The notes under the pieces: model-generated
Told to the model about the DNA's origin: nothing
The model's database searches: none
Seen by the model: the letters and a program-made list of their open reading frames with translations, nothing else
Part shown: in pieces, positions 15,860 through 63,791 of the stretch
How the letters are laid out: each line of letters starts with the position of its first letter
Numbering within the stretch: position 1 is the stretch's first letter
DNA from: Candidatus Zhuqueibacterota bacterium
GTDB lineage: Bacteria; Zhuqueibacterota; Zhuqueibacteria; Residuimicrobiales; Krinioviventaceae
NCBI GenBank assembly: GCA_034521575.1
Contig: JAXHMJ010000002.1
Location: 1,001,089-1,065,088 of the forward strand
DNA: 64,000 nt
Reading direction: 5' to 3'
Program-made: the position numbers and the translations under genes

Positions 15860-16139
15860 TACACTCCTCTCAAAGGTTGGACATGAATGGTTTGTATAGA
15901 TCATCTTTTTGATGCATCTGCAAAAAGTATGCTGTTGTAGAATTTTTCAAAATGCTGCATCGAGCGGCGCCCCATGCTGTCAAAATAAACCGCCACGCTG
16001 AGCCAGTCAGAGTAAGGCGCTTTTGTATCATAATCATCAAACGTCCGCATACAGGTATTCCGGGAGTACCGGGGCGCCAATGAACCTATACTCCATTTTA
16101 CTTTTATGTTGCGCCTTGCTCATATAAGGTGTAAAGTCT

Positions 16140-30920: not shown

Positions 30921-30982
30921 ATGTTCAAATTGCTTTGGGATAGTGGTCGCAGCTTTGGCTTGAAGTTCATTAAAAACAACAG

Positions 30983-31300: not shown

Positions 31301-31528
31301 AACACCTTATATTTATTAATGTTATGAAAGTCGACTTCAAAATTTTTGACGTAATGTCAAGTGTTTTTCTGTGTTATGTCATATTTTTTTGTATAATCTG
31401 AGCGTTGCAATTACCTAACCGGACGTTACTGAGTATAAACAATTAATCATATAAAATCAAGCAGATTCAATTCATTGCACAGCTATCATACAAAGAGAAA
31501 ATAACAAAAAAGATTTCAAGAGTCCCCT

Positions 31529-32372: not shown

Positions 32373-32392
32373 ATAAAAATCTCCTCGAATTT

Positions 32393-32749
32393 TTATGATA
32401 ATTTTCCAATACCCAAATCACTGCCTCCGGATGCTTTAGAGGCATCGTTACCGTTTTCTTCTTCCTCTTCAACTTTTGTAACATCCCGTCCTGTAAACAG
32501 GTATGTACGCAAATGTTCATCCCAGGCCGGGACATTCTGGCGCAGCCATTCCAGGGTCATACAGGCATGTTCGATTTCTTCATCGCGATTGTGTTCAACT
32601 ATATTTTTCAAATGATCATCATTGGTGGTTACAGCGCGTTGATTATACCAATCAACTGCTTCCACTTCTTCTTTAAGGCTATTAAGAGCACGGGTAATAT
32701 TTCGTGCTTGTTCTCCAAGTTCTTCAGGGGGTTCATGATAGTATGACAT
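32393..32749 (-). CDS. Encapsulated ferritin-like protein (EncFtn/Flp), the cargo, carrying a C-terminal encapsulin-targeting peptide.
   Basis: The protein is 118 aa. The ferritin-like helical core (E..H motifs: EEVEAVDWYNQRA...EEIEHACMTLEWL) is followed by an acidic linker and the terminal ...GGSDLGIGKLS*, which matches the GSLxIGxLK cargo-loading consensus. The gene lies 20 bp upstream of the shell gene. Confidence 0.8.
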   Translation of the reverse strand: MSYYHEPPEELGEQARNITRALNSLKEEVEAVDWYNQRAVTTNDDHLKNIVEHNRDEEIEHACMTLEWLRQNVPAWDEHLRTYLFTGRDVTKVEEEEENGNDASKASGGSDLGIGKLS

Positions 32750-32821
32750 AGTTTCTCCTTTTAATTGAATGAATATTTTGTCTTTATAACAAACCAGACC
32801 GCTGTTTTCATCCGCATTGAA

Positions 32822-33151
32822 TCAATTTTGATACAATAGAATAGAAACATTCTCAACGGTGACGAGTCCACCTTTCAGAGCATCCTGAATAATGGGCAAA
32901 AATGCATCAATTTTATCCGGCACATCAATCATTTCAATAACCAGGGGCAAATCTTCGGACAATCTCAAGATTTTTGCATTGTGAACTACGCTTGTGCGCC
33001 CATATCCCAACTGTCCCCGAAGTACAGTGGCTCCTGCAATATGCATTTCTCTGGCTTTATTTACAATCCATTCAAACAAGGGTTTTCCCTCATAGTGATC
33101 AGATTCCGCAATATAGATGCGCAGCAGTTGGCCTTTTTCAGGCAGCGGCAT
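32822..33151 (-). CDS. DUF190 (PII-like) protein of the kind commonly paired with CrcB.
   Basis: The protein is 109 aa. LLRIYIAESDHYEGKPLFEWIV...GATVLRGQLGYG matches the DUF190/PII-like fold. It lies 10 bp downstream of crcB. Confidence 0.7.
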   Translation of the reverse strand: MPLPEKGQLLRIYIAESDHYEGKPLFEWIVNKAREMHIAGATVLRGQLGYGRTSVVHNAKILRLSEDLPLVIEMIDVPDKIDAFLPIIQDALKGGLVTVENVSILLYQN

Positions 33152-33160
33152 ATGTTCTCC

Positions 33161-33553
33161 TTATATCAATCTAGACAAATACAGTCCTGTGTAAACCGCA
33201 AACAGCCCCAGTCCTGCCTGCACTCCGATGTTCAACGCCATCATCAACAATTGTCCATCCCGAAGCAACATTAAAGATTCGTAGGCAAACGTCGAAAACG
33301 TGGTAAAGCTTCCCAATCCACCGACCAATATCAACAACCGGATTTCCGGAGAAAACATTTGTTTCGAGTTGACCAAACCCATGAAAAATCCAATCAGCAG
33401 GCAACCGAGAATATTGACAAACAATGTGCCCCATGGGAAAAAAGACTGGGGAAAGCATTTCTGAATCCATCCACTGGAGAAATAGCGCAAGGCAGCGCCT
33501 AAAAATCCACCGGCTCCGATATATAATAATTTAATCCACACTATAAACTCCAC
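33161..33553 (-). CDS. crcB: Fluoride ion channel CrcB/FluC.
   Basis: The protein is 130 aa with 4 TM helices. Conserved blocks are GGFLGAALRY, GTLFVNILGCLLIGF and GGLGSFTTFSTF. Confidence 0.85.
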   Translation of the reverse strand: MEFIVWIKLLYIGAGGFLGAALRYFSSGWIQKCFPQSFFPWGTLFVNILGCLLIGFFMGLVNSKQMFSPEIRLLILVGGLGSFTTFSTFAYESLMLLRDGQLLMMALNIGVQAGLGLFAVYTGLYLSRLI

Positions 33554-33564
33554 AGCGCTGCAGC

Positions 33565-34459
33565 TTACAATTCCCAGTATTGGGTTTTTCCAAGAAACTC
33601 TTTTTCGAAATGGTTTTTCAAAATTTCAAACGCCTCATCCACATGATCCACGACATCAAACAAGTTTAAATCATCGCGTGATACGACCCCCCAATCGACG
33701 AGTCCCTGAAAATTAATAATTTTCTCCCAAAACTCTTTGCCGTAGATAATTACTTTGATCGACTTTTTCACCTTTTTGGTTTGCAGCAGGGTCAACAGTT
33801 CAAACAGTTCATCCATCGTACCGAATCCACCCGGAAACACAATCAGGGCTTTGGCAAGATAAACAAACCAGAATTTACGCATGAAGAAATAGTGATACTC
33901 AAAGGATAAATTTTCTGAAATATAGGCATTGGGAAACTGTTCAAACGGCAGACTGATATTCATACCAATGGTTGGGCCGCCTGCATCGGCAGCGCCGCGG
34001 TTCGCAGCTTCCATGATTCCCGGACCGCCCCCGGAACAGACAATAAACCTTTTTTTCTCAGCCAGTTGCATAGACCACTCGGTTAAACGCTTTGCCAGCG
34101 CTCTGGCTTCATCATAGTATCGGGATATTTTCAACTCCCTCTCGGCTCTTTGAAGTCTCCTCCGGTTCAGCGCCTTTTTCACGCAGAGTTTTCAGGTTAT
34201 CTGCAGCTTCTTGAGAAGAAACAAGCCGGGCTGACCCATAAAAAACCACCGTGTCTTTGATATCAAAATGACTGAGCCTGCTTTCTGTCTCAAGGTATTC
34301 CGCAAGCATCCGAATCACCCGGGCGTCATTGCTGTTCAGAAATTCACTGTTATGATAAGCACGTGTTAAATGCGGTTTTTTAAAGGAACGGCTTCTTCCG
34401 ATGCGTTTAAACGGACTCTCTTTTTTATGTGGTGAATAAACATCCCGTTCATTGTACAT
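33565..34459 (-). CDS. LOG-family (type II, TIGR00730 Rossmann-fold) nucleotide 5'-monophosphate nucleosidase. The gene is split by a -1 frameshift near 34150-34185.
   Basis: The N-terminal ORF 34112..34459 contains ...DTVVFYGSARL... The C-terminal ORF 33565..34182 contains ...RFIVCSGGGPGIMEAANRGA...GGFGTMDELFE. Together they form one LOG-type protein. The junction lies in an A5 run. Confidence 0.7.
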
Positions 34460-39522: not shown

Positions 39523-42168
39523 TTATTCCAGAGAGTCAATCAAACTGGTATCATTTTTAATTTTTTCTTCAAGCTGCTGCATCTTGCGCTGTGCATTCTG
39601 ATCATCCGGATTTGTTCCCTGCCACTTGTTCATAGCCTCAAGAGCTTGTTCATACTTGCCCTGCTGTTCAAGCATGTTTATGTAGGTTCCGGCGATATAG
39701 CTATCCGAAGGATTCATTTCGTAAGCATATTCAACAAGGTCCAGGCTTTTTTCATTTGCATCAGCATACTGATACATATTGGCGACCTGTACCATCAATC
39801 TGGGATCCGGCGGCGGGATCACTTTAAAGGGAATACGTTCCTGCATTTTATCAAGTGCCCGGACCACAGCTTTATCATCTCCCTGGCGCCTGTATTCCCA
39901 CACCAGACGCAGATAGGCGGCACGATAATTCTGCAGCAAGCCGATGATACTCTTGTTAAAATATACATCCGGATTATCAAGATTACGATATTTGAATTTA
40001 TCCAGGTTCTTTTCCAGCTTTTCACCATACACATGTTCAACCTGGTAGGGTACCAGTTTAAAACAAAGTCCGTCCATTCGCAGATAGTTATCAAGATTGA
40101 TTTTGTTCTGATCCGACACGGTTACCGCGAAATAGATCGGTTTCTCCCACCTGTTGGCCAGAATAATGTTCAGAATCATATAATCCTGCACTCGCAGCGC
40201 CTGGCCCATGATTGTGGGTTCGACTGTAACACGCATTTTTGAATCCTGATACTCGGAACTTTGCAGAAAAAGAGTTGAATCCTGCATATCATTTAGAGCA
40301 TCCTCTTTGCCCTGTTCCGTGACCGGGATGGCGATGGTGCTTTTTTCCCATCTCTGGATATTGATATCATCAATGCGATGGTCTGGAATCGAAATGGGAA
40401 CTTTGGGCTCCTCATGTTTAAGTTGTTTGATATACCAGTCTGTGTTCAACAGACTCAGATTAACCACCCGCACATCCGGTCGAATATTCTCTACATATTG
40501 CAAATACCAAAGTGGAAAGGTATCATTATCGCCATTTGTGAACACAATACCATCTTTTTCACAGGTTTCAAGGATATTATAAGAATAATCATAAGCGACA
40601 AAATTACCGCTACGGTCATGGTCCTGAAAATTGTGCGCAAACAGTATACCTGGCGCCATAACCAAGGCGAGCAAAATAGCCACACCTGCATAAACCATTC
40701 TCAGTTTTATTTTTTCAACCCGTTCCTGTAACCATTCAAGAACCGCTGTCACCCCCATTCCGATCCATATACTGAATGCAAAGAATGACCCGACATAGAC
40801 ATAATCCCGTTCTCTGGGCTGTGGATCAGGCTGGTTCAGATAAATAATAATCGCGAGACCGGTCAGGAAAAACAACGCCAGAATAAACAGCGCGTGTCTC
40901 CAATGCCTGGAGAAATGGTGAACCATTCCGAGAACGCCCAGGAGAAACGGAAGGGCAAACAAACCATTGAACGATAAATTTTCGGCAATAAACCCATCCT
41001 GGCCGATCGTTGTTCCTTTTCCGATAAACTGCCAGCCAAAATAACGGAAATACATTTTTTTAATCTGATAATTCCAAAAGAAATCCATCTGTTCGTCCCA
41101 GCGAAACGTTTTATAATCCTGGTTCGGATATTGCCGTTCGAACTGCCATTCAGGCGGCAGGTCCGGAAAACGTCTCGGGAATGTGCCCCAACTGCCGTAC
41201 TGCTCTCGATTCAGATATTTGACCATTTTTTCCATCGTCTCCGGATTATTCTCATCCACGGCCGGATCTGCATTGGAACGGATGTAAATCATAGTATATG
41301 TTGAATAACCGGTTAAGACGAGCAACAAAGCCATAAACGCCAATGTAAAAATGCGTTTTTTCTGTGAAATACCATACAAGACCCCTCCCAACACGGCAAG
41401 AATTACAATCAGGAGAAACCACATGCCGACAGATCCAGCGATTCTCGGAACAAACTGAACGACACCCGGGTAAATCACAGCAAAGACCCCGCCGGTGATC
41501 AAAACAAAGTACAATAGATTTTTCCAGGTAATGATCTCGCCGCGTTGGTCCAGAATTTTGAAATAAATAATCATAAAAATAGCCGGCAGTGCCAGAATCA
41601 TCAGCAAGTGAACACCGATAGCCAGTCCGACAAAATAGGCGATCAGCAGCAGATAACGTTCATTTCCGGGCTCATCGGCTTTTTCCAGCCACACCAAAAT
41701 GCACCAGACAATCATAGCCGTAAACATCATCGAAATGGCATATACCTCTGCTTCCACGGCACTGAACCAGAATGTATCGCTAAAGGCAAAGGCGAGTGAT
41801 CCAACCAGACCGCTGGCGAGCAGAATCAGGGTATCGTAAAAAGATTTTGATGCACCGCGCCATTGTTTGATCAGTCGCACAATAATCAGGAATGCAAGCA
41901 TAACCGTCAAAGCTGAAGACAGTGCTGAAACAATATTGACGCGTAATGCAATATTGCCGGCGATAGGTAAAAGAGTAAAAATCCGTCCGATCAACAGGTA
42001 AAACGGCGCACCCGGGGGATGCGGAACTCCAAGAATATAGGAGCATGTGATAAACTCACCGCAATCCCAGAATGAAGTTGTCGGGGCGATTGTGATCAGG
42101 TAAACAATCAACGAGCTGACAAAGGTCAAGCCGCCAAAAAGCCTGATAATGTTTTTTTCATTCTGCAT
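39523..42168 (-). CDS. DUF2723-family GT-C-type glycosyltransferase (PMT/ArnT-like, GT39/GT83-like) with a C-terminal TPR region.
   Basis: The protein is 881 aa. The N-terminal motif ...TSFWDCGEFITCSYILGVPHPPGAPFYLL is the DUF2723/PMT_2 motif with its DxE-type loop. More than 11 TM helices are predicted. The C-terminus has TPR-like repeats (...YEQALEAMNKWQGTNPDDQNAQRKMQQLEEKI). Confidence 0.7.
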   Translation of the reverse strand: MQNEKNIIRLFGGLTFVSSLIVYLITIAPTTSFWDCGEFITCSYILGVPHPPGAPFYLLIGRIFTLLPIAGNIALRVNIVSALSSALTVMLAFLIIVRLIKQWRGASKSFYDTLILLASGLVGSLAFAFSDTFWFSAVEAEVYAISMMFTAMIVWCILVWLEKADEPGNERYLLLIAYFVGLAIGVHLLMILALPAIFMIIYFKILDQRGEIITWKNLLYFVLITGGVFAVIYPGVVQFVPRIAGSVGMWFLLIVILAVLGGVLYGISQKKRIFTLAFMALLLVLTGYSTYTMIYIRSNADPAVDENNPETMEKMVKYLNREQYGSWGTFPRRFPDLPPEWQFERQYPNQDYKTFRWDEQMDFFWNYQIKKMYFRYFGWQFIGKGTTIGQDGFIAENLSFNGLFALPFLLGVLGMVHHFSRHWRHALFILALFFLTGLAIIIYLNQPDPQPRERDYVYVGSFFAFSIWIGMGVTAVLEWLQERVEKIKLRMVYAGVAILLALVMAPGILFAHNFQDHDRSGNFVAYDYSYNILETCEKDGIVFTNGDNDTFPLWYLQYVENIRPDVRVVNLSLLNTDWYIKQLKHEEPKVPISIPDHRIDDINIQRWEKSTIAIPVTEQGKEDALNDMQDSTLFLQSSEYQDSKMRVTVEPTIMGQALRVQDYMILNIILANRWEKPIYFAVTVSDQNKINLDNYLRMDGLCFKLVPYQVEHVYGEKLEKNLDKFKYRNLDNPDVYFNKSIIGLLQNYRAAYLRLVWEYRRQGDDKAVVRALDKMQERIPFKVIPPPDPRLMVQVANMYQYADANEKSLDLVEYAYEMNPSDSYIAGTYINMLEQQGKYEQALEAMNKWQGTNPDDQNAQRKMQQLEEKIKNDTSLIDSLE

Positions 42169-47771: not shown

Positions 47772-50487
47772 TCAGGACAGCATCTGCAGATTCTTTTCCA
47801 GTTTATCAAGATTCATTTCCCAATCGGCTTTTTTCTGGCGTTCTTTTTCAACCACATCTTTGGGAGCCCGGGAAATAAATTTTTCATTATTCAATTTTTT
47901 ATTCAAACCTTCCAGCTGTTTTTCAAGACGTGTCATTTCTTTTCCAAGGCGTTCTTTTTCCATCTTGACATCAATCAAATCAGTTAGGGGCATATACATT
48001 TCCATACCCTGCACCACTGCAGTTGCCGAGAGCTCGGGCCGCTCTGATCCAAAGGATAGGCTCTCCAGACGTGAAAGACGTTTGACAGCAATTTCATTAT
48101 CCTCAATAATCCGCTGTTTTGCAGGATCAGTGATATTCATGACAAGTTCAGCCTGTTTGCCCGGTGGTATATTCATTTCTCCGCGAATATTGCGGACCGC
48201 ACCGATTGTCTGCTGCAGCAATGAAAAGGTTTCTTCAGCAGACGGGTTGATCCAATCATTATCGACTACCGGGTAGCTCTCGTGCATAATGGAGCGTTTC
48301 TCATCGACTGCATGTTCATTGCCGGGAAATGCCTGCCAGATTTCTTCTGTGATAAACGGCATCATGGGATGCAATAGCTTAATACTGCTCTCCATGACAA
48401 AAAACGCAACAGACCGGCCGATTTGCTGTTTGCGCACATCCGAATCATCATAAAAGCGCAATTTTACCCATTCCACATACCAGTCACAAAACTCGCTCCA
48501 GACAAAGCTGTACAAGTCATGTGCGGCATCGTTCAGCCTGAACTCTTTCATAGACCGATCCACATCTTTGATGGTCTTGTTCAGCCGGCTCAGAATCCAG
48601 CGATCCGATAAATCAAATTCATCCTGAGAGATAGATTCCAGAGTTAGCAATTCCTGCGACGCATCCAGATTCATCAACACAAAACGGACGGCGTTCCAAA
48701 GTTTGTTGCAGAACCGCTGACCCAGTTCCACTAAAGTATGATCAAAGTGCACATCTCCACCCAGAGGCGTTGAATACAGCATGGTCATACGCACTGCATC
48801 AGCGCCATAGGCCGGGACTCCGTCTTTAAAAGTCGGATTTTCCGGAATAAAATGCTGCATCTGTTCCGGTTCCGCACCGTCGATCAGCCACAGGGGATCC
48901 GGAGAGTTTCCGAGTGACTTTGACATTTTTTTGCCCTGCAAATCGCGTATCATTCCGTTGAAATAAACATCAGTGAACGGAATATCATCCATAAATTCCA
49001 GAGAAGCCATGATCATACGGGCAACCCAGAAAAAAATAATATCCGGACCGGTAGCCAGTGTATCTGTTGGGAAAAAAGTGTATAGATCCCGAGTATCTTC
49101 CGGCCAGCCCAGGGTGCTGAACGGCCACAGCCAAGATGAAAACCAGGTATCGAGAACATCTTCATCCTGACGCAGTTCTGTACTGCCGCATTCAGCGCAT
49201 TTGTCCGGGGTTTCCCTGGAAACCGTATGATGGCCTTTTTCGCAGTACCAGACCGGAATGCGGTGTCCCCACCATATCTGACGGCTGATACACCAGTCGC
49301 GGATATTTTCCATCCAGTGAAAATAGGTTTCTTCCCAGTGTTTAGGATAAAAACGAATGTTACCCTCGCGCACAACCTTGATAGCCGGTTCAGCCAGAGG
49401 TTTCATTTTTACAAACCACTGGTCGGACAGATAGGGTTCGACAATATCATTAGATCGATAACAGCGCGGTACGGAAATCACTTTTTTCTGTTCACTTTTC
49501 ACCAATCCCAGTTCTGCAAGATCTTTTAATATTTGTTTTCGGGCTTTGAACCGGTCCATTCCTTCATACGCTCCGGCATTCTCGTTCATGCTGCCGTCCG
49601 GTGCAATTACCGATACTTGTTTGAGGTTGTGCCGCTGGCCCACCTGAAAATCATTAAAATCATGTGCCGGAGTGATCTTAACCGCGCCGCTGCCCAGTTC
49701 AGGATCGGCGTGTTCATCGGCAATGATGGGGATATCTCTATTTATCAATGGCAGCTTGACGGTTTTCCCGATAAAGTCAGTATAACGTTCATCTTCCGGA
49801 TGTACGGCAACCGCAGTATCACCCAGCATGGTTTCCGGCCGGGTGGTTGCCACGACAATCTCACCGGAACCATCGGATAATGGATAAGTGAGTTCCCAGA
49901 ATCCCCCGGTTTCCTCCTTGTTATCCACCTCTTCATCAGCCAATGCAGTATGGCAATAAGGGCACCAGTTGATGAGTCGGCGTCCCCGGTATATCAATCC
50001 CTTTTCGTACAAACTGACAAAGACTTCACGTACAGCATTGGAAAGATCTTCATCCACTGGTAAAACATTCGCGATCCCAGTCACAGGAAGCGCCGAGTTT
50101 TCGAAGCTGCTGCAAAATGATGCCGCCATATTTTTCTTTCCATTCCCACACCCGCTCGAGGAATTTTTCACGGCCCAGATCATATCGGGTTTTGTCTTGC
50201 TGCTGTAAGGCAGCTTCCACTTTGTTTTGCGTGGCAATACCGGCATGGTCCGTACCGGGCATCCACAAGGTCTCATACCCCTGCATCTTTTTCCAGCGAA
50301 TCAACAGGTCCTGGACGGTATTGTTCAAAACGTGTCCCATGGTCAGCATACCTGTCACATTCGGAGGCGGTATGACGATGGTAAATGTTGGTTTTTCCGT
50401 ATCCGAATCAGCGTGAAAAAACTTGTTTTTTTCCCAGTATTGATACCACTTGTTTTCAACGTTCTTCGGTTCGTAAACTTTATCCAT
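47772..50487 (-). CDS. valS: Valine--tRNA ligase, split by a +1 frameshift near 50050-50060.
   Basis: The N-terminal ORF 50050..50487 (MDKVYEPKNVENKWYQYWEK...PPPNVTGMLTMGHVLN, the HIGH region) ends ...CDWDRECFTSG*. The 834-aa ORF continues ...DEDLSNAVREVFVSLYEKGLIYRG and includes KMSKS and the C-terminal coiled coil. Skipping one A restores ...CFTVDEDLSNAVREVF. Confidence 0.85.
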
Positions 50488-50718
50488 ACATTCCCTCTTT
50501 CCACTAGTTGGTTTTTAACTGGTAATTTACTAAAAAAGCGGTGAAGAATCAATAGATTCCATCAAGAAATAAAGAAAGCTCAAGCTGAAAAATTTGCAAT
50601 TATTTTTAATTTTTTGAAATTTTTAGCAAGGTGTCTTTGTTACATTTCTATCATACCGAAGACCAGATCCAGATCCGATACATCCCCCATATTCCATTCA
50701 ACTGAAACAGGAGGTATT

Positions 50719-50759: not shown

Positions 50760-50781
50760 GTAACATTTTTGCATCCATCCA

Positions 50782-53287
50782 ATGAAAGGGGTTAACATCA
50801 TGAGGTGTAGAGCGTATTCAGGGTTATGGGTAGTATTCTATGTTCTAACTGCTTTTTTTCTGTTCAGCACCACACTTTCGGCCGCTCCGACGGTAAACGG
50901 TTTGTTTTACGGAGATAACGATCAAAGTCAATACCAATTTTTGGCTGAAAATGGCACAGGCCGCGGTACAATGTATTACTACCTTGAGCAGGATGTTTTG
51001 TATATTGCTGTAATTGTAAGTCCCTCCGTAAATGACAATGTGATAGACGATGGGCAAACCGCATATGCAAACAGCGTGGGCTGGACTCCTCCCCACCAGG
51101 CTGAAAAGCTGATTCAATCCGATCATTTGAACTTTACGTTCACAGCAGACGGCGTTTCCTACACCTGGAAACAGGGCTATCTTTATGATGCAGATGGTGA
51201 TAAAAGCCCCTCTGAAGCGGACTGGCTGTCTGACTATCATGACGGCAGTCTGGGAGGCGGAACCCTACCACCCGGACTCGTATCTGCCAGCTCGATGCAG
51301 TGGAATATGAATAACAGTCCATGGGTGAGCACATTCACCGGGACCAGCAATGATTGGAAATCCCCCTATGATCCGGCGAGTCCGAACAGCTTGACGGCTC
51401 CATATGAACTGGGTTATCCGCACTGGGACAGTGTGAACGAGTGGGAATGGGCGATGGTGTATGAAATGAGCATTCCCATAAGCAATTATTCCGGCGCCAT
51501 AACACTGCAGGTAAACAGCGCGCACAATTCTCCTTCCAAAGACGATGAGGAAGACATTCCCATTCCTCCGGTGACACTCACAGATTATGGTGATCTGCCC
51601 AGCCCTTTTCATACGCTGAGCACTGATAATGGAGCCAGTCACTTGATTTTAACAGAAAACAATCCCACTCTGGGCAGTAGTGTGGACGCTGAAAATGACG
51701 GTCAACCTGACGGCAAAGCCAGGGGTGATGACAATAATTACCATGATGATGAAGACGGCATTCAATTCAAATCAGCTGTTTCACCCGATTATGAGGCAAT
51801 ACTTTACGTTACTGTGAAGAATACAGGATACCTGAGCGCCTGGATGGATTTTAACGGCAATGGAAATTTTGATACAGGTGAGCAATTTCTCTCGGATGTA
51901 ACCCTGTCAACCGGCACACACAGTTTAACCTTTACCCCACCGGCGGATGCAGTGACTGGAGTCACGTATGCCCGCTTTCGATACAGCACAGAAACCGGAT
52001 TAACGGCAAATGGTTCAGCTGCAGACGGCGAAGTAGAAGATTACCGGATTGAAATCCTGTCATTGCAATATGTGGATTACGGCGATGCTTTTAGTGATAA
52101 CATTATGAATGTATGGTGGCCGGAAGCCGGGAGAGGCGGTTGACGCAACCCGAGCCTATTTGGGAGACATGGTAGACACAGAGGGCGTATACACCGGTAG
52201 TTTGGCTGCCGATGCAGACGACAATAATGATGATACGAATGATGAAGACGGCATCACCTTTTACCATGATTATAACAATGACGGAATCTGGGTGGAAAAA
52301 ACAGATAATATTTTTGTCAGTAATTATACCTATCAGATCAAAGTCACGGTCAATCTGGGCAGCGGCTATTCAGCTTTATTAGCCGGATGGTTTGATTTCT
52401 CCGCAGACGGTATTTTTGGAAACTTTGACAATGAGATTATTATCAATAACGATCTGTTCCAGAATGGTCTGGGCAAAACGCAACCCGGCGACTTGAGTTT
52501 GGCAAAAACTGCCGCCACATTGACCCGCTACTATACATTTACCGTTCCCGATATTGTTGGCGGAGATTACACCTTTATCCGATTCAGGCTGGACACCTAT
52601 ACTGAAGGTGGTGGACTTTTATCTTCCGGATTTGGCGCGGGATACGGCGAGGTCGAAGATTATTACGCCACTCTGGATGATACACCGCCGGTCTCTAGCC
52701 AATTAACCTCATTCGAGGCGGAACAATCGGAAAAAGGCATCCGCTTATTCTGGAACTATGAAAACCTGCAGAACCTTGTAGGGTTCAATGTGCTGCGAAG
52801 CGTTGAAGAAGCAGGTCAATATAACCAAATCAACAAGTCGCTCTTGTTGTGCCTGGAGCCAAACCCGCAGTCTTTTACTTTTACGGATTATGATATCCTG
52901 AAAAATAAAAACTATTTTTACAAACTTGAGGCGCTCGATCTGAACGGTAAAAGCACCCTCTACGGTCCGGTTTGCGCTGCATGGAACACGGGAATTGAAG
53001 AGATACCGGAAAATTATAAATTCGTGGATAATTATCCGAATCCCTTTAATTCAAATACCTGGTTTGAATATGTACTGGCCTCTGCAGGGCATGTCAAATT
53101 ACGTATCTATAATATAAAAGGCGAACTCGTCAGGACTCTGGTTGACTCGCATCAATCAAAAGGATCGTACAAGCTGAAATGGAATGCAGAAAATGATAGA
53201 GGCCGATTCGTACCGACAGGCATTTACATCTATCAATTCCAATGCGGCGACTATGATAAAACAGGCCGTATGTTGTATATGAAATAA
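50782..53287 (+). CDS. T9SS cargo protein containing GEVED domains. The gene is split by a +1 frameshift near 52125-52140.
   Basis: The N-terminus is a signal peptide (alternative start ATG 50800). The motifs GEVEDYRIEIL (ORF1) and GYGEVEDYYATLDD (ORF2) are GEVED-type. The C-terminus DNYPNPFNSNTWFEYVL...GIYIYQFQCGDYDKTGRMLYMK is a T9SS C-terminal domain. ORF1 50782..52143 and ORF2 52109..53287 overlap in adjacent frames. Confidence 0.65.
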
Positions 53288-54557: not shown

Positions 54558-54884
54558 ATGGATCAAAATCAAAAGAAACAAATTGATATACAGTTGGGTG
54601 AAAAAGAAGCAGAAGGAATTTACTCGAATTTGGCCTTAATTACCCATTCTCCGGCTGAATTTATTATTGACTTTACCCGAATTCTTCCGGGTTCTCCCAA
54701 GACTAAAGTTTTTGCGCGAGTGATCATGACACCACAACATGCAAAATCGTTTCTGGAAGCAATGAAAAACAATATCGAAAAATATGAAAACCAGTTCGGC
54801 GAAATATCCAACATACCTGACTCGGCCAGGAATCATCCAATAGGATTTCAGCCTCCGGAAAATCACAAAGAATCGAAAGAATAA
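54558..54884 (+). CDS. DUF3467-domain protein.
   Basis: RBS AGGAGG is followed by ATG. The sequence IDIQLGEKEAEGIYSNLALITHSPAEFIIDFTRILPG matches DUF3467. Confidence 0.65.
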   Translation: MDQNQKKQIDIQLGEKEAEGIYSNLALITHSPAEFIIDFTRILPGSPKTKVFARVIMTPQHAKSFLEAMKNNIEKYENQFGEISNIPDSARNHPIGFQPPENHKESKE

Positions 54885-54895
54885 TATCCGTTAAC

Positions 54896-55459
54896 ATGAG
54901 AAAACTCACATTAGTATTCATGGTACTCATGGCCAGCCAGCTGATACAGGCCAAAGAGCATTTCTATTCCCATATTGGTGTTGGCTATGTTGTCTGGAAA
55001 CCCATGAGTCTTGATGATTATCAATCGGAGCCATTACGCAATATTGAAAATGCATCGACTTTGCCGCTTTTATCAGCAACTCTAAAGATATTGAACAATC
55101 ATGCATTGCGTGTGGGTTACTTTAACTGGAATCAGGCCGGAACAGACAAGCATCCATCCTCAAAGGTCAATTTGCATTATCTGGCATTGGATGCTATGAG
55201 TCTGGTGATTGCGGAAAGTCCGGCAAGCCCGTATGTAAGCTATGGTCTTTCGACTGTTTTACACAGAAAAGACTCTGGAAATTTAATAGCGGCCGGCCCC
55301 GGTTACCAAATGGGAGCGGGTTTATATCTAAACCTGCATCGCCGCATCGCTTTTACAGCTGAATATCGTTTTCTCTATCTGATGCTGCACGATCAGATCG
55401 GACAAACCAATAATTACAGCGGGCCTATATTGTCAACATCCCTACATGTTTGTTTCTAG
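54896..55459 (+). CDS. Small outer-membrane beta-barrel protein (OmpW/porin-like).
   Basis: Signal peptide MRKLTLVFMVLMASQLIQA. The protein has alternating beta-strand patterns and a C-terminal aromatic. Confidence 0.5.
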   Translation: MRKLTLVFMVLMASQLIQAKEHFYSHIGVGYVVWKPMSLDDYQSEPLRNIENASTLPLLSATLKILNNHALRVGYFNWNQAGTDKHPSSKVNLHYLALDAMSLVIAESPASPYVSYGLSTVLHRKDSGNLIAAGPGYQMGAGLYLNLHRRIAFTAEYRFLYLMLHDQIGQTNNYSGPILSTSLHVCF

Positions 55460-55692
55460 AATCTGTTTATGTTGAATCAGATGTATTCAATTGGAACACT
55501 TTGCCAGACTTTATAAACAGCCTGTGCTTTAAAAAACCTTCGGAATTCATTGCGATATTTTTTATATTATTGATATTACTTGATTTATAATTTTTTGACA
55601 ATCTAAGTTTTGTACCATCTTTTAATCACATTCGGTATAATTGTTGCATTTTCAATCCCGAATAAAAAGGTTTACAAAACTTTTTTCAGTTA

Positions 55693-58600
55693 TTGGAGGA
55701 TTCTTTGCAGAGTTATAAAAGAATATTCATTCTGGTCATTATCCTGATTTTACCTGCTTTTGCATATTCCAAGACGTGGAAAATAATGCCGGTGGGTAAT
55801 TCGATCACTGCCGGTGAAGGCAGCAGCTCGGGCAACGGATATCGAGACATATTATACAACAACCTGAGTAATTCCGGATACGATATCGAGTTTGTCGGCC
55901 CCAACGGTGCGCCCTATAACGGTTTTTATCAGAGTGGCGCCAAAATCGATCAATTCTTGCCCGGAGGTTCGCTCAATATTACCGGACAGCTCAACACCTA
56001 TTTCCCGGACATTGTCCTGGTTATGCTGGGAACCAATAACACGGGAAAATGATGCTCCGGGGCCCTATACCAATCCAGCTACAATGGCCGGGAAAATGCA
56101 GACTTTGCTGCAGAACATAGCTCAGCATCAGAGTGTCCGTTATATTCTTGTATGTAAAATCATCCCCAAAATTGTTGAAGGGGAAGCGGAACCCAAGATT
56201 CGTGAGTACAATGCTGAACTTGAAAAAATGTTTTTTGACAATCCGCCCAGTGACAATATTACAGTTGTTGACATGTACTCTGCAGTTACTCTCAGTCAAT
56301 TAACTGACGGTGTGCACCCAAACAATACCGGATATCAAAACATGGCCCTGCGTTATGAACAGGCCATTTCGGATTTAATTGACGAAACGAATCCTGACGA
56401 TAATCCGCCGTCCCGGATCGCATGGAAGCAAGGCTATTCGATTAATTCACAAAGCATTCGACTGGAATGGTTTGCACCCAGCGATGACGGCGCCGCCCGC
56501 TCTGCGAACATTTACGAATTGCGTTATGCAACATTCAATCTGAATGCTTCCAATTTCAAGCAGGGAAAACTGGTCTCTGTCGGGAAACCCGGGGCGCCGG
56601 GTTCTGTTCAAAAAACAGATGTTACAAATCTGCTGCCGGATCAGTCTTATTTCTTTGCAATTCGCGCATGGGATGCGTCAGGCAATGTCGGGCCGTTATC
56701 CGAGAGCATATTTGTAGAGACCAGTGTTGCAGGAATTGAGTATTGTACCGATTTTGGAGACCCTGATTTACCGGACTGGTCCGCCTCGCCTCAGTATGAG
56801 GTTGTGGATTCCAATCTGGTGAACTCTCAATCCGGCGCCCGGCTGGACAGACCTGGCGGTTTACACCTCCACTGCCTACAGTCCGAATGCCTCATCGGTT
56901 GATGCCTCTTTCACCTGGTCAAATTTAGTGGACAATGACGGTATCAACTCAAGCGGTATTGCAATGCTCCTGAACAATCCCGTTTACAGCGAAGCGGACG
57001 GATATCTGGTCCGGGTTCGAAACCGCAGAATTTATCTTGAGATCATTCAGAACGGACAGGCGCAAGCCGGGGTATTAGACTCTGACGATTTTTATAAAGA
57101 CGCTCCTTCTCCCACTCAGGGGGATGAACTAAAGGTTCAATTTTCTTATGATATTTCGTTGGGCAATGTGTTCAATGTGTATCTGGAAAACACCTGGATT
57201 GGTCAGGTCAATGATGTGAACAATTTGCAGGGAAATGCACAGCGTCTTTTCTCCGGCGTTATGCTTTACGGTGGTCAAAACAATGACATTTCCAGCTTTT
57301 GTGTGGCTGTGCCACCTCTCAACGCTTATACTATGAATATTCATACGGGAAACAATGAAACCGGCCAGGTCGATGAAAAGCTTGCCATTCCCCTGGCTGT
57401 TCAGATCACTGATGTCAACGGACAAGGAATTGCCAATGTACCTGTCCAGTTTAATGTAATTTCAGGCAGTGCATTTTTAAGCACAGACTCGATTGGTGAT
57501 ATTTTTGACGGCAACATTTGGTATGAGGCGGAATCCGGCATTCTCGAACAGCCGATGAGTAGTTCCAGTTCATCAACGGCTTCCAATGGAAAGTATATTC
57601 TCGTGCCCAATATCAGCAATGCCAATAACCGGGGTAAAGCGTATTATCGCATTTTCATCCCCAAAACCGATGCCTATGCGCTTTGGCTGCGCGTTGCTGC
57701 TCAAAGCCCCATTGCAAACTCGGGATATATCGCCGTCGGAGACACGTCGGAAGCCGCAAGATGGAATTTCAAAGTAACAGAGGACTGGAAATGGTACCGT
57801 TGGGATCAAAGCTGGGTTCTTGAAAACGGCTTTCTTGATTTCGCCATTAAAAACCGTGAAGCCAACACCTGGTACGACAAAGTACTCTTTACATCCAATT
57901 CCGGCTATACCCCGACCGGCGCCGGCGGCAGCAATCAGGAATTTTCCAATATCACCAATATATCCGGTTTTGCATCGACTCAGGTCACTTTTGGCAACCA
58001 GGCAGAGACTGTAGAAATTGAAGCTTATGCACCGCTTGTCCGAATAACAACCGACAGGTGTTTACATTGACGGTAAATGCAGGCGATCCCAACCAGATGG
58101 CCCGGACCTCAGCATCGACCATAACCGGAAAAGCAGGTGAACTGCTTTCCGAGCCGTTTTCAGTGTCATTAGAGGATAAATACGGCAATCAATGTTCAGG
58201 TGTTAAAGTAAGATTTACGGTCCAGGAAGGGGACGGGACATTTAATAACCGTCAGCAGATTGATGTTTATTCTGATCAGGACGGCAATGCCGAAGTGCTG
58301 TTTAAACTCGGATATCGGGAAGAAAGTATTGTACAGGCCTTTCTTCCGGACTTTCCGAATATACCATCTCTTGAATTCCGCGCTGTTGCGGGTGAAGGAA
58401 TTCCTGTGGCCATAGAGGAACTTGGCGGGAACAATCAAACCGCGCGGGTAACCGAGGCGCTGCCTGAATCCTTGTCCATCAAGATCACTGATGAGAATGG
58501 CAATCCGGTTGAGAATTTTCCGGTGCCGTTTGAACTCATTTCCGGCAACGGCACCATTGACGGCGAATACCCTGTGCGCGTAGATACAACCAACGCAAAT

Positions 58601-61600
58601 GGTATCGCCACGGTCAGAACAACACTTGGCGATACAGCAGGCACCAACATTCATAAAGTACAGGTTGCCCCAAGCGTACCGCTGGATAACGCCCCCATCA
58701 TTTTTAACGCGACAGCGCTGCCGGATGCCCCTTATCAGATTGTCAAAGAATCCGGTGAAGCGCAGACAATTGGCGCCGGGCACACCTTTCACGAACCTCT
58801 AATTGCCCGAATTGTCGATCAATACAACAATGGCATTCCGGAGCACAACCTTGAATTTTATGTGGTCAACGGAGACGGTAACTTTGAACAAAAAGTAGGC
58901 ACTTCAACGGTCGATGCAGACACTGTTTTGACCACGGATGAAACCGGTCGTGTGGAATTGCTGTACACAGCCGGGACCATTGTCGGCAATCACCAGATCC
59001 GGGTTGACGGTGATCCGAAGATTGAGCAGGGATATCGAATTTTTAATCTCAACGTCACTCAGCCGATCCCGCATCGAATCGTAAAAATGTCCGGCGACGC
59101 CCCGCTACAGGCGGAAACTGTCGGATCATTGCTGGCCAAACCCTTTAATGTAAAAATATTAAATGCTTTTGGCAATCCGATTGGAGCCGGCACAGACGTG
59201 GTATTCAAATCCGATCGGGGTAACGGAAAGTTTTACGGTTCAGATTCTGTGATACGGCAAACGGATGCAAATGGCATTGCTTCCGCCCAGTTTACACTGG
59301 GCACAGAGTCAGGCATTCAGACTGCGATTATTTATGTTAAAGGATACAGCAATGTACAAGCCGTGGAATTTAGAGCACAGGCGAATCCTGCCGCTCCATA
59401 CAGAATAATAGCAGACAGTCCCACCGGCTTTGAGGCCAGGGCCGGACAGGGTCCCATTCAATTGCGGGTTTCAAATTTTGGATCAATTTGAAAATCCAAG
59501 ACCGGGACAAAAGGTGACCTTTAGTGTGGGTACAGGGCAACGGACATTTTTCCAACAATTCAACCGTTCGCACCATCGTATCTGACAGCGTTTCAGGCAG
59601 CGCGGTTGTGGACTATTATATGGGTGAAAGCACGGAAACACGCAATATCATTCATGCCGCAGGTCGTTAAGGAAAACAACCAACCGTTGAACGGCAGCCC
59701 TGTCGAATTCCGCGGTACAGTAAAACCGGAAGCACCGGCATCCCTGATCAAACTGCACGGAGATGATCCGATTCAGTCAGCGCCTGTGATGACCATCGCG
59801 CCGGATTCATTTGCAGTGGCTATATTGGATAAATATAATAATCCTGTGCCCAATACAGAAGTGTTGTTCACAGTCACCGGTTCCAATGGTTCTCTGGAAG
59901 GAATGCCTCAAATCACCAAAGTCACCAATTCAGCAGGAGCCGCATGGACCTGGTTAAATCTCGGAACCCATGCTGCTTTATATTCGGATAGCGTACAGGT
60001 GAGTGTCCCCAATATTCCCGATATATCACCCGTGGAATTTGTGGCCACAGCAGAATCCGGCCAGCCGAATCGCATTTACGCGGTTGGGGACAGCAGTTGG
60101 CAGCAGCCCATAGGCCAAACTCAGAAGATATTCCAGCCCGAGGTCAAAATCGTTGACACCTACAACAATCCTGTCATCAACTATGATGTAAACTTTGCAA
60201 TTCTTCAGGGCAGCAGCAGTGTGGACAACAAACAGTCTATTGTCAAGCAAACCAATGATGATGGTATAGCGCAAGTGACATGGCGACTGGGTAACACGCC
60301 TTCGGAACATATTCTGGAAGCGAGCGCTGCGCTCAATTCTGTACCCCTCAACAATTCTCCCGTACGCTTTAATGCTGTTACGGTCACCGGCGCTCCCAAA
60401 TATATTTCGCTTATCAATACGCCGGGAGATACATTGACAGCCGGTCAGAGTATTCCAATTACGCTACGCGTGACGGATACTGCACAAAACCCCATTGCCA
60501 ATCATCCGGTACACCTCAGTGTAACCCATTACAACAGTGACGATGAACACGCGGTATTTGTGGTTGACGGCAAGCTGTATCACCGAAATCACGATCCGTA
60601 CCGATGCCAACGGTTATGCAAACGCCGGATTTATGCCGATTCTTGAAGACAACCAAATTAAAATCCGCTCTTATGATGCAAACAACGCGCCGTTAGACCC
60701 CTCGCCCATCAATCTGTTTGTCTGGGGTATTCCAACACAGGCAAAGCGAATGGAATTGGTATCGGACAGGCAGCATACTGTGGTGGCGGGTCAGCCGCTT
60801 ACGGTGCGGGCCGCGGCTTATGATGCGTTGACAGGCGGAAACCGTATTGACGGACATCGTATCCAGTTTTCAATTCTGGAAGGCGACGGATATCTGCAAT
60901 CTTCAAATTACAGTTTCAGTACAAAAAAAACGACGCAGGGTGAAGCGAGAGAAACCTGGTTTGTCGGTCACAAAACGGATGAACTGAATATCCTCGAATT
61001 AAACGGAGGATCAATACCCGGGTCACCCGATTCAGTTTTCGTTAATGTGCTACCCACCTCACCGTCAGCAGATTCCTGTTCGATCACTTTTTCCGGACAG
61101 TTAAAATCTGATGAGAGTACCTCCGCACAGATCCATGTGACTCTGGTAGATTCATTCGGCAACCCCATTCCGGGTAAAGACATCGAACTGATTGCTGTTA
61201 GCGAGGGCGCAAGTTTTAATCAACCCGAAGAATCTACGAATGATAAGGGAAAAACAATGGGCAAAGTGAAAGCCTCGATTGTTGGCTCCTTAAAAATCAC
61301 TGCATTTGTTCCGGATTATCCATCGCTGAAACTGGACACCATTGCCATTCCGGTCAAACCCGGTCAAGCGTCTCAATTGGCTCTGGTTAATGAAAGCAAT
61401 CAGTTTGTCGGCAACAAGGGCGCCGTTCTGAAAGACTCTCTTGCCGTGATGGCTAAAGACAAAAATGATAATCCCGTGCCGCATACCAACATCAAGTTTG
61501 AACTCAAAACCGGCAACGGGTACTTTGTCGAAAACCGGCAAAAACTTTATTATGAAATGGCCGATTCCAGCGGTATTGCAGCGGTGCATCTTGTCATGGG

Positions 61601-63753
61601 ACCGGAAGAGGATGAAAACTATTTGATCTATGCCACTATTGATCATCCTGATTACGCTGATATCCAGGTTCCGTTTTTGGGGAAATCCAGATCAGCGATC
61701 CCCCCTATTCACTGCGTAAAATTTCCGGTGACAGCTTGACCGGTGCGGTCGGACAAAACTTGTCCTCGCAGCTCGTGGTCCAGGTTATTGACAGCGACAG
61801 CATTCCGGTACGAAACACACCGGTATCATTTACACCCCTGGGAGACAGCGATGTGCGTCTGCTTGATGATACTCCCATTTTAACCGACTATAACGGCTAT
61901 GCCGGCATCCAAATCGGATTTGACAAGCTCAGCGGTTCGCATCAAATTGAAGCCAGATTGTCAGGAAATTCCGACACGATTATTTTTATCGCATTTGCGC
62001 GCGCCGGCGCTGCTTCGCAGCTGCTGGCCGCCAGTCATGCCAAACAAACGGCAACGGTCGGTAAAACTTTTAATGATGTGGTGATCGTTCAGTCACAGGA
62101 CCCGAACGGCAACCCTGTCGGCGGAGTGAAAGTTGAATTCAGTCTAATTGAAGAACCCGGCCCGGAAAATCTCGCCGCGGTGCTGCAACCCAGCACTTTG
62201 ACTACCAATGAGCAGGGTTTAGCCGCTGCGACGATACTAATGGGGCATAAAACAGGTGAGTATATTTTCGAAGCGACATCACCTGATCTACCTGATGAGA
62301 ATGTTCAGTTTAATGTCACCGGAAAAAGTGATCAAGCCTTTTATCTAAGAAAATATGCCGGTGATGAACAGAGTATGACTCGCGGCAGAGAGCTGGTCTA
62401 TCCGTTGGTCGTACAAATCACCGATCAATATGGCAATCCGGTTCACGGAGAAACCGTATATTTTGCCCCGGAAACGGAATCCGGCTATACAGAAAATCAA
62501 ACAACAACAAGCGACAGCAGCGGCCTGGCATCCACACGCTGGACAATCGGTTATCTTGATGTAAATTCATTATTGGCGACCAAAGTCGGCCTAGAGCCCA
62601 ATTTTGTACGTTATTATGCCACCGGTGTTGACAATGCCTTTCCCGAGTTTACTGATATGCCCTCGCAAGTGACGGTTAATTATGGTGAACCCGTAATCAT
62701 TCCACTACATGCAGAGGACGGCGATCAGGACCCGCTCACATTTTCCGTTCTCAATCAACCCTCTAATTCCGAATTTGATGCAGATTCCAATACATTCAGT
62801 CGGACACCCGGGTAGATCAGAAAGGAACCTGGACCGTCAAATTCCAGGTAGAAGACAACAAGTCCGGTTATTTAAAGGGATTTGATATCGATTCGGTCAC
62901 GATTAACGTGATATCCCAAATAAAGATTTATTCGTTTTATCCGACTGATTTGGCGGAAATCCGAAAGCCGGAAATCATTGAATTCTCGATTCGTGTTACA
63001 GATCAGGGCGCATCGCAATTGAACTATCAGTGGTCGGTCGATGGCGTTCCTGAGCCGGTCAATACGAACAGATTTTCGTTTTATAGTACAAAATATGCAC
63101 GCGGCGACCATATCATCAAAGTCATCGTTACGGATGGAATATCATCAGACAGTCTGACATGGAACACGGTAGTGACCAAAGTGGAATTATCAGCATTTGA
63201 AGCTCAGAGTCTGCCGTTTGAAGGTATTCAGTTGGTCTGGGAAACCGCAAATGAGGTGAATAACGCCGGATTTAATGTGCTGAGGAGCAACAGTGAGGCA
63301 GGCCCGTTTGAAAAAGTGAATCCGCGGTTGATTCCCGCATCGCCCAAAGGGCACTATACTTTTACAGACTCGACCGCAGCCGGCGGACATACATTCTATT
63401 ATAAACTCGAGGATCAGAGCATCAGCGGCTATAGCAATCAAAGTGAAGCCATTAGGGTTAAAGCCGAATTCCCGGAAGAATATAAACTGCTGCAAAACTT
63501 TCCCAACCCCTTTAATCCGGAGACGAATATCAGATTCCAGCTTCCGGAGAAATCCGACACTCGTATTTCTATTTACAACATCCGGGGTCAATTGGTCAGA
63601 ACTCTGGTCAACAGCAAGTTGGCGCCCGGATATTATGAACTTTCATGGAATGGTAAAAACAACCAGAATATGCAGGTTGCTTCAGGCGTTTATTACTATC
63701 GCTTTCAGTCCAATGATTATCAAGCAATCAAGAAAATGGTTTTACTCAAGTAA
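55693..63753 (+). CDS. Giant T9SS-secreted multidomain adhesin or enzyme of about 2,700 aa. The domain order is signal peptide, SGNH/GDSL hydrolase, FN3, LamG-like, CBM-like (YEAESG...) domain, about 10 Big_1-type Ig-like repeats, He_PIG-like domain, T9SS C-terminal domain. The gene is fragmented by at least 9 frameshifts.
   Basis: Start is TTG 55693 or 55705, the latter after GGAGGA. The signal peptide is KRIFILVIILILPAFAYS. SGNH blocks are GNSITAG, LGTNN and DGVHPN. The FN3 domain reads SIRLEWFAPSDDG...YFFAIRAWD. Repeated ...ITD.NGNPV.N.PV.F....G.G......T.DANGIA... units are Big_1-like. The end NFPNPFNPETNIRFQLP...KKMVLLK* is a T9SS C-terminal domain. The ORF pieces are 55693..56052, 55892..56902, 56928..58070, 58058..59491, 59606..60646, 60537..61739, 61736..62815 and 62908..63753. 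Protein-like sequence continues across every junction in a neighbouring frame. Confidence 0.6.
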
Positions 63754-63765
63754 AGGCAAATAAAA

Positions 63766-63791
63766 AGGCCATCTACCTGGATGGCCTTTTT
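63766..63791 (+). terminator. Rho-independent terminator after the adhesin gene.
   Basis: AGGCCATC tacctg GATGGCCT TTTTT. Confidence 0.7.

Follow-up and report, generated by a model that had tools for sequence, protein, structure and literature searches.

A Predicted 2,682-Residue Type IX-Sorted Surface Protein With a Putative Esterase Head, Encoded by a Frameshift-Interrupted Gene in a Candidatus Zhuqueibacterota Genome

Results

Reconstruction of the Gene

The window analyzed here is a stretch of 64,000 nucleotides (nt) of contig JAXHMJ010000002.1 from the genome assembly GCA_034521575.1 of a Candidatus Zhuqueibacterota bacterium, and all positions count from its first letter. According to our analysis, positions 55693-63753 of the plus strand are one real gene of about 8 kb, which encodes one cell-surface protein of 2,682 residues, referred to below as the giant protein. 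The gene is read from a TTG start to a stop codon at 63751-63753 and has 2,682 codons after the removal of nine short insertions or deletions (indels). As assembled, the plus strand between 55666 and 63753 resolves in a stop-to-stop analysis into ten stop-free segments that chain in frames 0, 1, 2, 1, 2, 0, 1, 2, 1, 0 (55666-56049, 55868-56899, 56823-58067, 58022-59488, 59412-59582, 59518-59667, 59525-60643, 60525-61736, 61661-62812, and 62779-63750), with overlaps of 34-182 nt between neighbors. Simple joining of these segments gave a sequence of 2,683 amino acids, which was used for database comparison.

When the intact homologue P0001 (2,681 residues) was aligned to the DNA by a dynamic programme that allows for frameshifts, exactly nine frame changes were required. 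One extra base is present at 56047 (GGA[a]AAT), 56828 (TCT[c]AAT), 59471 (GTT[t]CAA), 59529 (GTG[g]GTA), 59662 (GCA[g]GTC), and 60584 (CAC[c]GAA), which are frameshifts 1, 2, and 4-7; frameshift 3 at 58038-58039 (CTT[gt]CCG) consists of two extra bases or a codon short of one base, and frameshifts 8 at 61698-61699 (GCG[at]CCCCCC) and 9 at 62810-62811 (CCC[gg]GTA) of two extra bases or one missing. The original prediction, made from the DNA letters without database searches, had proposed a single polypeptide running across at least nine frame switches, and its estimated sites all lie within about 35 nt of the aligned positions; the three successive +1 shifts that it described between 59485 and 59665 are real and fall at 59471, 59529, and 59662.

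No stop codon interrupts the 2,682 codons of the rebuilt frame, and the protein has only four amino-acid gaps relative to P0001, to which it is 77% identical at 100% coverage (4,822 bits, E = 0). Taken singly, the ten segments are all 74-82% identical to P0001, and the 19- and 44-residue pieces between shifts 4 and 6 show 74% and 75%. Because the frame is free of stops over 2,682 codons and the product matches a 2,681-residue protein from end to end, its continuity is far beyond chance. The single polypeptide is likewise borne out by the intact homologues, which are single open reading frames (ORFs) of 2,666-2,724 residues with the same domain order; none of them is divided into a separate SGNH hydrolase gene and independent adhesin genes.

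Domain Organization of the Protein

All of the protein features described here are encoded on the plus strand. Read from the translation, the protein starts with a putative Sec-type signal peptide of typical n-h-c layout (residues 1-25, 55693-55767), in which K9 and R10 are followed by the hydrophobic stretch IFILVIILILPAFA and by a predicted cleavage site between AFA and YS; this N-terminus has no lipobox cysteine. The first domain is an SGNH/GDSL hydrolase resembling carbohydrate esterase family 3 (CE3), which occupies residues 28-222 (55774-56359) and spans frameshift 1. When rejoined, it is matched by Pfam Lipase_GDSL_2 with 58.6 bits (cut-off 32.9; model 2-177/178) and by Lipase_GDSL with 42.3 bits (cut-off 23.6), while the unrepaired halves reach 28 and 21 bits. 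The motifs of blocks I, II, III, and V are found as G35-N-S37-I-T39, F-V-G69, G113-T-N115, and D205-G-V-H208. Across 26 family sequences G35, S37, T39, G69, G113, N115, and H208 do not vary, while conservation of D205 reaches at least 90%. The family profile above its cut-off over the whole model, together with this invariant catalytic set, supports the SGNH esterase assigned in the original prediction.

The nearest sequences in the PDB are 2VPT (E = 8.5e-10), followed by 5B5S/5B5L (4e-3), and these correspond to CtCes3-1 and TcAE206, respectively, which are CE3 acetyl(xylan) esterases (PMC9487903). The NCBIfam model for the AxeA1 acetylxylan esterase gave a weak match of 25 bits at the level of the domain only. 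Hallmarks of CE3 are GxSxT in block I and the calcium loop DFVG(x)nDxD (PMC9487903). The former is present as an invariant GNSIT, and the latter is partly recognizable, with the consensus D-F-E-F-V-G (DIEFVG in the window) and no clear DxD after it.

The following fibronectin type III domain (residues ~240-342, 56411-56719) had also been predicted, and it passes with 25.6 bits for Pfam fn3 (cut-off 25) next to a weak match to Ig_Rha78A_N. Residues 345-545 (56726-57329), which span frameshift 2, are assigned to the concanavalin-A-like lectin/glucanase fold on the basis of an AlphaFold2 model (pLDDT 94, pTM 0.90), for which Foldseek retrieved from the PDB Emp46p/47p, legume lectins, VIP36, carbohydrate-binding module family 66 (CBM66), and glycoside hydrolase family 16 (GH16), with E ~1e-7 and TM scores of 0.5-0.6. 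In sequence searches, residues 340-550 had no Pfam match at E up to 1 and no match among PDB sequences. This stretch had been labeled LamG; no Laminin_G model of Pfam matches it, and its fold points instead to the wider concanavalin-A-like class that includes L-type lectins, CBM66, and GH16.

The last part of the head is a CBM35-like module (residues 604-735, 57504-57899), recognized with the family profile against PDB sequences and with Foldseek. The profile matched the CBM35 chains 5x7o (5.7e-8), 5x7g, 2wz8 (3.9e-6), 2vzp (8.3e-6), 2w1w, 2w47, and 2w3j, within an E range of 6e-8 to 1e-3, and the sole match from CBM6 was 1uxz (4.5e-3). Foldseek returned 2wz8 (TM 0.75, rmsd 3.0), 5fui (0.76), 7zvo (0.76), and 2cdo (0.71); the query in this case was a three-domain model (pLDDT 88.8), and the tool does not give the aligned part. 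The resemblance to CBM6/35 noted in the original prediction thus holds through the CBM35 profile matches and the fold similarity at TM 0.75-0.76, and the peptide on which it was based (NIWYEAESG...WNFKV) is present at residues 603-765 (nt ~57500-57990). Within the module E611, E613, G615, A629, S630, R666, W700, and D728 are invariant, of which E611/E613 (the EAE motif) and D728 are presumably compatible with the structural calcium site of CBM35.

On either side of this module lie the two halves of the first bacterial Ig-like domain of the Big_1 type. The N-terminal half (residues 545-603, 57327-57503) covers positions 1-52 of a hidden Markov model (HMM) built from the protein's own repeats, and the Pfam Big_1 model aligns there only with its positions 14-52; the C-terminal half (residues ~755-786, 57957-58054), which spans frameshift 3, lies in the stretch of residues 728-786 that is matched by positions 51-92 of the own-repeat HMM. 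Splicing out the CBM raised the Pfam Big_1 score from 20.8 bits for half of the model to 38.1 bits (cut-off 34.9; model 14-80). The CBM35 module is therefore, as judged from these profile alignments, inserted inside Big_1 domain 1.

Fourteen more Big_1 domains follow in tandem (residues 799-2303, 58091-62611), with a period of ~107 residues and across frameshifts 4-8, and bring the total found with the own-repeat HMM to 15. Pfam Big_1 itself scores 60-76 bits per large segment; on P0001 it reaches 234 bits over 13 stretches, and Invasin_D3 and MG4 also match there. The repeated profile matches above the cut-off and the 15 domains leave the predicted Big_1 array standing. Next comes a Big_9/He_PIG/cadherin-like Ig domain (residues ~2321-2388, 62663-62868), which spans frameshift 9. 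Pfam Big_9 passes on this stretch with 27.6 bits (cut-off 23.6) and Cadherin_4 gives 17.1 bits; He_PIG, the name used in the original prediction, reaches 17.8 bits, below its cut-off of 24. Precomputed He_PIG matches are present on some of the homologues.

Residues 2395-2490 (62887-63174) form an Ig/PKD-like beta domain that is conserved across the family and has a very weak PKD match (E 0.023). A further beta domain (residues 2490-2592, 63172-63480) precedes the C-terminal domain (CTD); this pre-CTD domain carries the motif VEL.SF.A...GV.L.W.T..E.NN.GF.VLRS and has no match in Pfam. Apart from the weak PKD similarity, attempts to assign these two beta domains from sequence gave no match in Pfam or among PDB sequences. 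The type-A sorting domain of the type IX secretion system (T9SS), encoded at 63499-63750, ends 3 residues before the stop and is matched by TIGR04183 with 37.2 bits (cut-off 23), by Por_Secre_tail (PF18962) with 38.6 bits (cut-off 27), and by FlgD_ig with 44.8 bits. With both TIGR04183 and PF18962 above their cut-offs at the extreme C-terminus, the protein qualifies as T9SS cargo, as had been proposed. The last ~190 residues (2493-2682) constitute a cassette of beta domain plus sorting domain that is 33% identical to the product of 52700-53284 in the same window. Copies with 30-40% identity are carried by otherwise unrelated cargo proteins from other bacteria, among them Ignavibacteriota, Calditrichota, Bacteroidota, and Latescibacterota. 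The stop codon is followed after 9 nt by a hairpin (63762-63791) with a 12-bp stem flanked by a run of A and a run of T, which looks like a bidirectional intrinsic terminator shared with the convergent downstream gene.

Homologues and Gene Neighborhood

Besides P0001, the full-length homologues of the giant protein comprise two with 59% identity and about 25 in the range of 36-40%. Several of them are labeled candidate division KSB1, and their names in the source databases are "Ig-like domain-containing protein," "T9SS type A sorting domain-containing protein," and "GDSL-type esterase/lipase family protein." The KSB1 proteins of ~2,700 residues (P0001-P0028) are collinear with the giant protein and share its domain order, its 15 Big_1 domains, its catalytic residues, and the pair of genes upstream; the gene in the window differs from them only by its nine indels. 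By sequence comparison, it is an orthologue of unstudied KSB1 proteins that are already in public databases. In every full-length member the Big_1 domains start at the same ~107-residue positions, and the HMM detects 13-16 of them per protein; the count of 15 appears to be conserved in the family, the gaps of ~210 residues probably representing missed domains.

A search with the head (residues 379-781) against 1.84 billion cluster representatives yielded at least 81 clusters (50% identity) at E up to 1e-30. Among the clusters listed, most have 2,300-2,900 residues and the head in the same position, and in one subgroup it lies ~200 residues further in. A scan of genome contigs was dominated by the generic sorting-domain pattern QN[YF]PNPFN; of its results, only L001-L003 were true relatives.

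Two small genes on the plus strand lie directly upstream of the giant gene. The first (54558-54884, 108 residues) encodes a DUF3467 protein (Pfam, 101.7 bits), and the second (54896-55459, 187 residues) a putative outer-membrane beta-barrel with a signal-peptide-like N-terminus and a weak OMP_b-brl match of 19.5 bits (cut-off 28.7). The pair precedes the giant gene at every related KSB1 locus that shows upstream sequence: a DUF3467 gene with 66-74% identity has the same position in L001, L082, L083, L087, and L088, a Pfam-annotated one occupies it at the P0016 locus, and homologues of the barrel gene (~200 residues) lie directly 5′ of the giant gene in L001, L081-L083, L087, L088, and at the P0016 locus. 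The sequence of L081 is cut, and the barrel gene alone is visible upstream there. The other neighbors vary: an EamA transporter gene is near the giant gene in three loci, a pectate-lyase-fold gene in L082 and L087, a GH10 xylanase gene is the downstream neighbor in L081, the closest relative, and housekeeping genes are found elsewhere.

Two surveys of the KSB1 phylum mention neither type IX secretion nor a protein of this kind (PMC11683472, PMC9012183), and our literature search on DUF3467, KSB1 surface proteins, and T9SS-sorted SGNH enzymes found nothing relevant.

Frameshifts Across the Window

The giant gene is not the only interrupted gene of the window. The gene for valyl-tRNA synthetase (ValRS; 47775-50514, minus strand) is split by a +1 shift near 50065, where one extra base interrupts its conserved FTMD motif (ACC A[G]TG GAT). 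Its first ~150 residues, including the HIGH-type motif (PPPNVTG...MGH) and DHAGIATQ, are encoded in one frame (50053-50514), and the remainder is an ORF of 834 residues in another (47775-50300). Three more genes, all on the plus strand, are shifted. The T9SS cargo gene at 4368-8096 has three successive +1 shifts at ~5709-5712, 6037-6049, and 6332-6347, which were placed via its own internal repeats; the cargo gene at 50764-53284 is shifted once (+1), somewhere from 52093 to 52135; and a gene at 11159-12771, which is not cargo, has one probable -1 shift at about 12158-12165. The product of 4368-8096 consists of five tandem repeats of ~230 residues with weak similarity to 3-keto-disaccharide hydrolase/Laminin_G_3 and a terminal sorting domain, that of 50764-53284 of two GEVED domains, a pre-CTD domain, and a sorting domain; the product of 11159-12771 has an N-terminal DoxX domain and a C-terminal part without a Pfam match.

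About 10 of the 15 shifts in the window require the skipping of one extra base. Around the shifts of the giant gene, identity to P0001 within 5, 10, and 15 residues equals the background, i.e., there is no substitution noise near the shifts; such a pattern of indels only, without substitutions nearby, is typical of long-read consensus. No motif common to the nine sites (for example, a methylation context) was evident. With P0002 and P0003 as outgroups, 131 lineage-specific amino-acid changes were counted in the giant protein and 134 in the intact P0001. At columns that are invariant in 23 other close members, the giant protein has one private change, compared with 0-15 in the others; it is a replacement of W by R, located 8 nt upstream of frameshift 9. 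Relative to the orthologous DNA of L081, 1,138 codons carry synonymous differences and 595 carry non-synonymous ones.

The nine frame breaks are most likely single-base indel errors of the assembly, rather than products of gene decay. Since an essential single-copy ValRS gene should not be a pseudogene, the indels are read as errors, and the unpolished sequence that the original prediction had implied is the best-supported cause, in view of the shifted ValRS, the stop-free frame, and the lack of excess changes. Programmed frameshifting or phase variation was considered and rejected: the nine sites differ in sign, slippery or long repeat tracts are absent, and the orthologues are intact.

Discussion

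A Model for the Giant Protein

The presence of an enzyme at the N-terminus and of a sorting domain at the C-terminus indicates the polarity of head and anchor. In the proposed scheme, the signal peptide would carry the protein across the inner membrane, and the sorting domain would then route it through the type IX system and be cleaved off. In type-A cargo of Porphyromonas, the sorting domain is cleaved and the C-terminus becomes attached to the outer-membrane surface; by analogy, the new C-terminus of the giant protein may be tethered in the same way. An Ig domain of invasin is ~3.6 nm long, and at this length the ~18 Ig-like domains of the giant protein would make a stalk of ~65 nm that keeps the N-terminal head at a distance from the cell surface. 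There, the CBM35 and the lectin-fold domain are predicted to capture polysaccharide, from which the SGNH domain would remove O-acetyl groups. The roles of adhesin and of glycan deacetylase are both putative. We consider the combined reading, i.e., an intact gene bearing indel errors and a surface protein presenting an enzyme on a stalk, to be probable. Acetylated hemicellulose or pectin would be the likeliest class of substrate, and our confidence in this assignment is far lower.

Several observations weigh against this combined reading. As many as 13 of the 15 shifts in the window are located in three T9SS cargo genes, which make up 14.2 of the 64 kb, and the density of shifts is ~0.9 per kb in these genes vs ~0.04 per kb elsewhere. 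This speaks against errors, because a uniform error process predicts no clustering; possibly, the consensus was left unpolished where strain-variable surface genes block the mapping of short reads. Long homopolymers as the cause were rejected, since only a single site borders a run of 6 nt; 128 runs of at least 6 nt occur in the window, and none of the other mapped frameshift sites lies at one of them. Neither reads nor another assembly of this strain could be located: look-ups with the exact proteins of the two intact upstream genes found nothing, and a 21-mer from the triple-shift region matched three contigs of the JGI, all unrelated. On the side of function, the enzymatic and glycan-binding activity of the head is predicted from sequence and fold; Pfam's own CBM and LamG models gave no match (E up to 1). 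The 64-kb window showed no genes of the T9SS machinery, and for KSB1 covalent anchoring is putative. Furthermore, the neighboring genes for carbohydrate-active enzymes (CAZymes) are not conserved across the family, so that a core role in the envelope suits this pattern no less than a nutritional role does.

Concerning the gene itself, the raw ORF map alone, with ten ORFs of 48-477 residues, some of which have possible start codons, could be taken to mean that a separate SGNH esterase gene is followed by adhesin genes and that the continuity is an artifact of ORF stitching. This is extremely improbable. Frameshift 1 separates block III from block V of the SGNH domain, which passes its Pfam cut-off only after rejoining, and several other breaks also fall inside domains; a signal peptide is found only on the first segment and a sorting domain only on the last; and the intact, collinear homologues, all of them single ORFs, already refute such a division. 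A second proposal is that the frameshifts are real, and in that case the giant gene and the two other shifted T9SS cargo genes would be recent pseudogenes, for example, due to relaxed selection on the type IX secretome. The strong concentration of the shifts in cargo genes agrees with this, as do their sites, which are short runs, unlike the long homopolymers of systematic nanopore errors, and the lack of local substitution noise around the indels. We nevertheless regard recent pseudogenes as quite unlikely, because the essential single-copy ValRS gene and a fifth gene that is not cargo are frameshifted as well, because 2,682 codons have no in-frame stop despite nine indels, because lineage-specific changes are not in excess and hit the invariant columns only once, and because the frame is restored twice by three consecutive +1 shifts (59471-59662 and ~5710-6340). 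None of the signs of a pseudogene (in-frame stops, excess lineage changes, and damage confined to dispensable genes) was found in tests of limited power, the counts of lineage-specific changes bounding neutral decay, in a rough estimate, only to ~50-65 substitutions.

Concerning function, and with the gene likewise taken as intact, the main alternative to the esterase acting on external polysaccharide is a core envelope fibril or adhesin of fixed length without a nutritional role, in which the SGNH domain would edit the cell's own surface glycans or be an acyltransferase, together with the upstream barrel and DUF3467 proteins. The constancy of 15 Big_1 domains at a ~107-residue period and of the total length of 2,666-2,724 residues over 36-78% identity fits such a structure; so do the DUF3467 and outer-membrane-protein-like pair at every locus showing upstream sequence, and the remaining neighbors, which are housekeeping genes, are not conserved, and form no consistent CAZyme cluster. 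Moreover, CE3 enzymes are the closest structural neighbors of the SGNH domain that has been solved for the peptidoglycan O-acetyltransferase OatA (PMC9487903). In contrast, the nearest characterized sequences are acetyl-xylan/acetyl esterases, a CBM35 and a lectin fold beside an esterase are the classic arrangement of plant-cell-wall esterases, and one of the matched CBM35 structures (2W1W, 2W47) comes from a chain that its depositors named "lipolytic enzyme, G-D-S-L." The DUF3467 protein (66-74%) is also far more conserved than the giant protein, and the linkage may be plain synteny. On balance, we view the envelope role as a minority possibility, less credible than the enzyme-on-stalk protein described above. 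An extension of it is a decidedly speculative idea: the giant protein, the adjacent barrel, and DUF3467 might together form an undescribed, lineage-wide surface apparatus of KSB1, with an enzyme on a stalk of fixed length (15 Ig domains, ~65 nm) docked to the barrel rather than, or besides, to lipopolysaccharide and with CBM35 as a substrate sensor, which would be a core envelope organelle and not an accessory CAZyme.

Comparison With Known Systems

Among characterized enzymes, the CE3 esterases CtCes3-1 (2VPT) and TcAE206 (5B5S) belong to the same SGNH fold family as the giant protein and have the GxSxT motif, a Ser-Asp-His triad, and the (D/E)FVG loop in common with it. Both are small enzymes that are attached to a dockerin or CBM1 module and either released or cellulosomal, whereas the corresponding domain of the giant protein heads a T9SS-sorted chain of 2,682 residues; the DxD of the calcium loop is not evident in it, and its activity on a substrate is predicted. 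The "lipolytic enzyme, G-D-S-L" of Clostridium thermocellum (2W1W, 2W47; profile E values of 2e-5 to 4e-5) also combines an esterase and a CBM35 on one chain, but in the giant protein the CBM35 lies inside an Ig (Big_1) domain instead of being joined by a linker.

Tandem Big_1/Invasin_D3 domains are also present in invasin and intimin, where an Ig stalk presents a distal lectin-like head, as we propose for the giant protein. Invasin and intimin have an N-terminal barrel anchor, a C-terminal head (type Ve secretion), and 4-5 Ig domains; the giant protein is reversed, with a C-terminal T9SS anchor, an N-terminal head that includes an enzyme, and 15 Big_1 domains. SprB and RemA of Flavobacterium johnsoniae are, like the giant protein, very large, repeat-rich surface proteins exported by the type IX system. 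However, SprB has a type-B sorting domain, a dedicated SprF partner, and no catalytic head, while the sorting domain of the giant protein is of type A (TIGR04183).

The component families (SGNH/CE3, CBM35, Big_1, and the T9SS type-A sorting domain) are thus well known, and the combination of esterase and CBM35 has a precedent in plant-cell-wall esterases. The giant protein family remains within the known principles of T9SS cargo and modular carbohydrate esterases, and the only mildly unusual points are the nested CBM35, the conserved length of the stalk, and the conserved upstream pair. The family is uncharacterized but widespread, and it is a reasonable target for studying how uncultured bacteria of the FCB group present enzymes far from the cell.

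The locus is also instructive with regard to annotation. Automatic annotation of the contig would report about ten fragments or a pseudogene. It would miss the 2,682-residue surface protein and, in addition, the ValRS gene, which looks broken, and no fewer than two further large secreted proteins. The window exemplifies how indel errors can accumulate in the largest genes for surface proteins; in metagenome-assembled genomes, such an accumulation could distort the number of pseudogenes and the inventory of secreted proteins.

Other Genes of the Window

Besides the giant gene, three genes of the window encode sorting domains: 4368-8096 and 50764-53284, described above, and 14756-15904 on the minus strand, which is intact and combines a CBM9 with the sorting domain. 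The region of 30-34 kb was examined as a candidate for further frameshifts, which were rejected, the ORFs there being separate small intact genes. It contains an intact encapsulin operon (31629-33625, minus strand) with the Linocin_M18 shell protein, the EncFtn ferritin-like cargo, DUF190, and a CrcB fluoride channel, and a LOG-family gene at 33565-34182. An insertion-sequence transposase (DDE_Tnp_1) is encoded at 30138-31109 on the minus strand and is overlapped by an upstream ORF in another frame (30986-31306). Finally, the window harbors a gene for a TMEM260-like protein O-mannosyltransferase with TPR repeats (39523-42168, minus strand) and one for a GH88 unsaturated glucuronyl hydrolase (8208-9395, plus strand).

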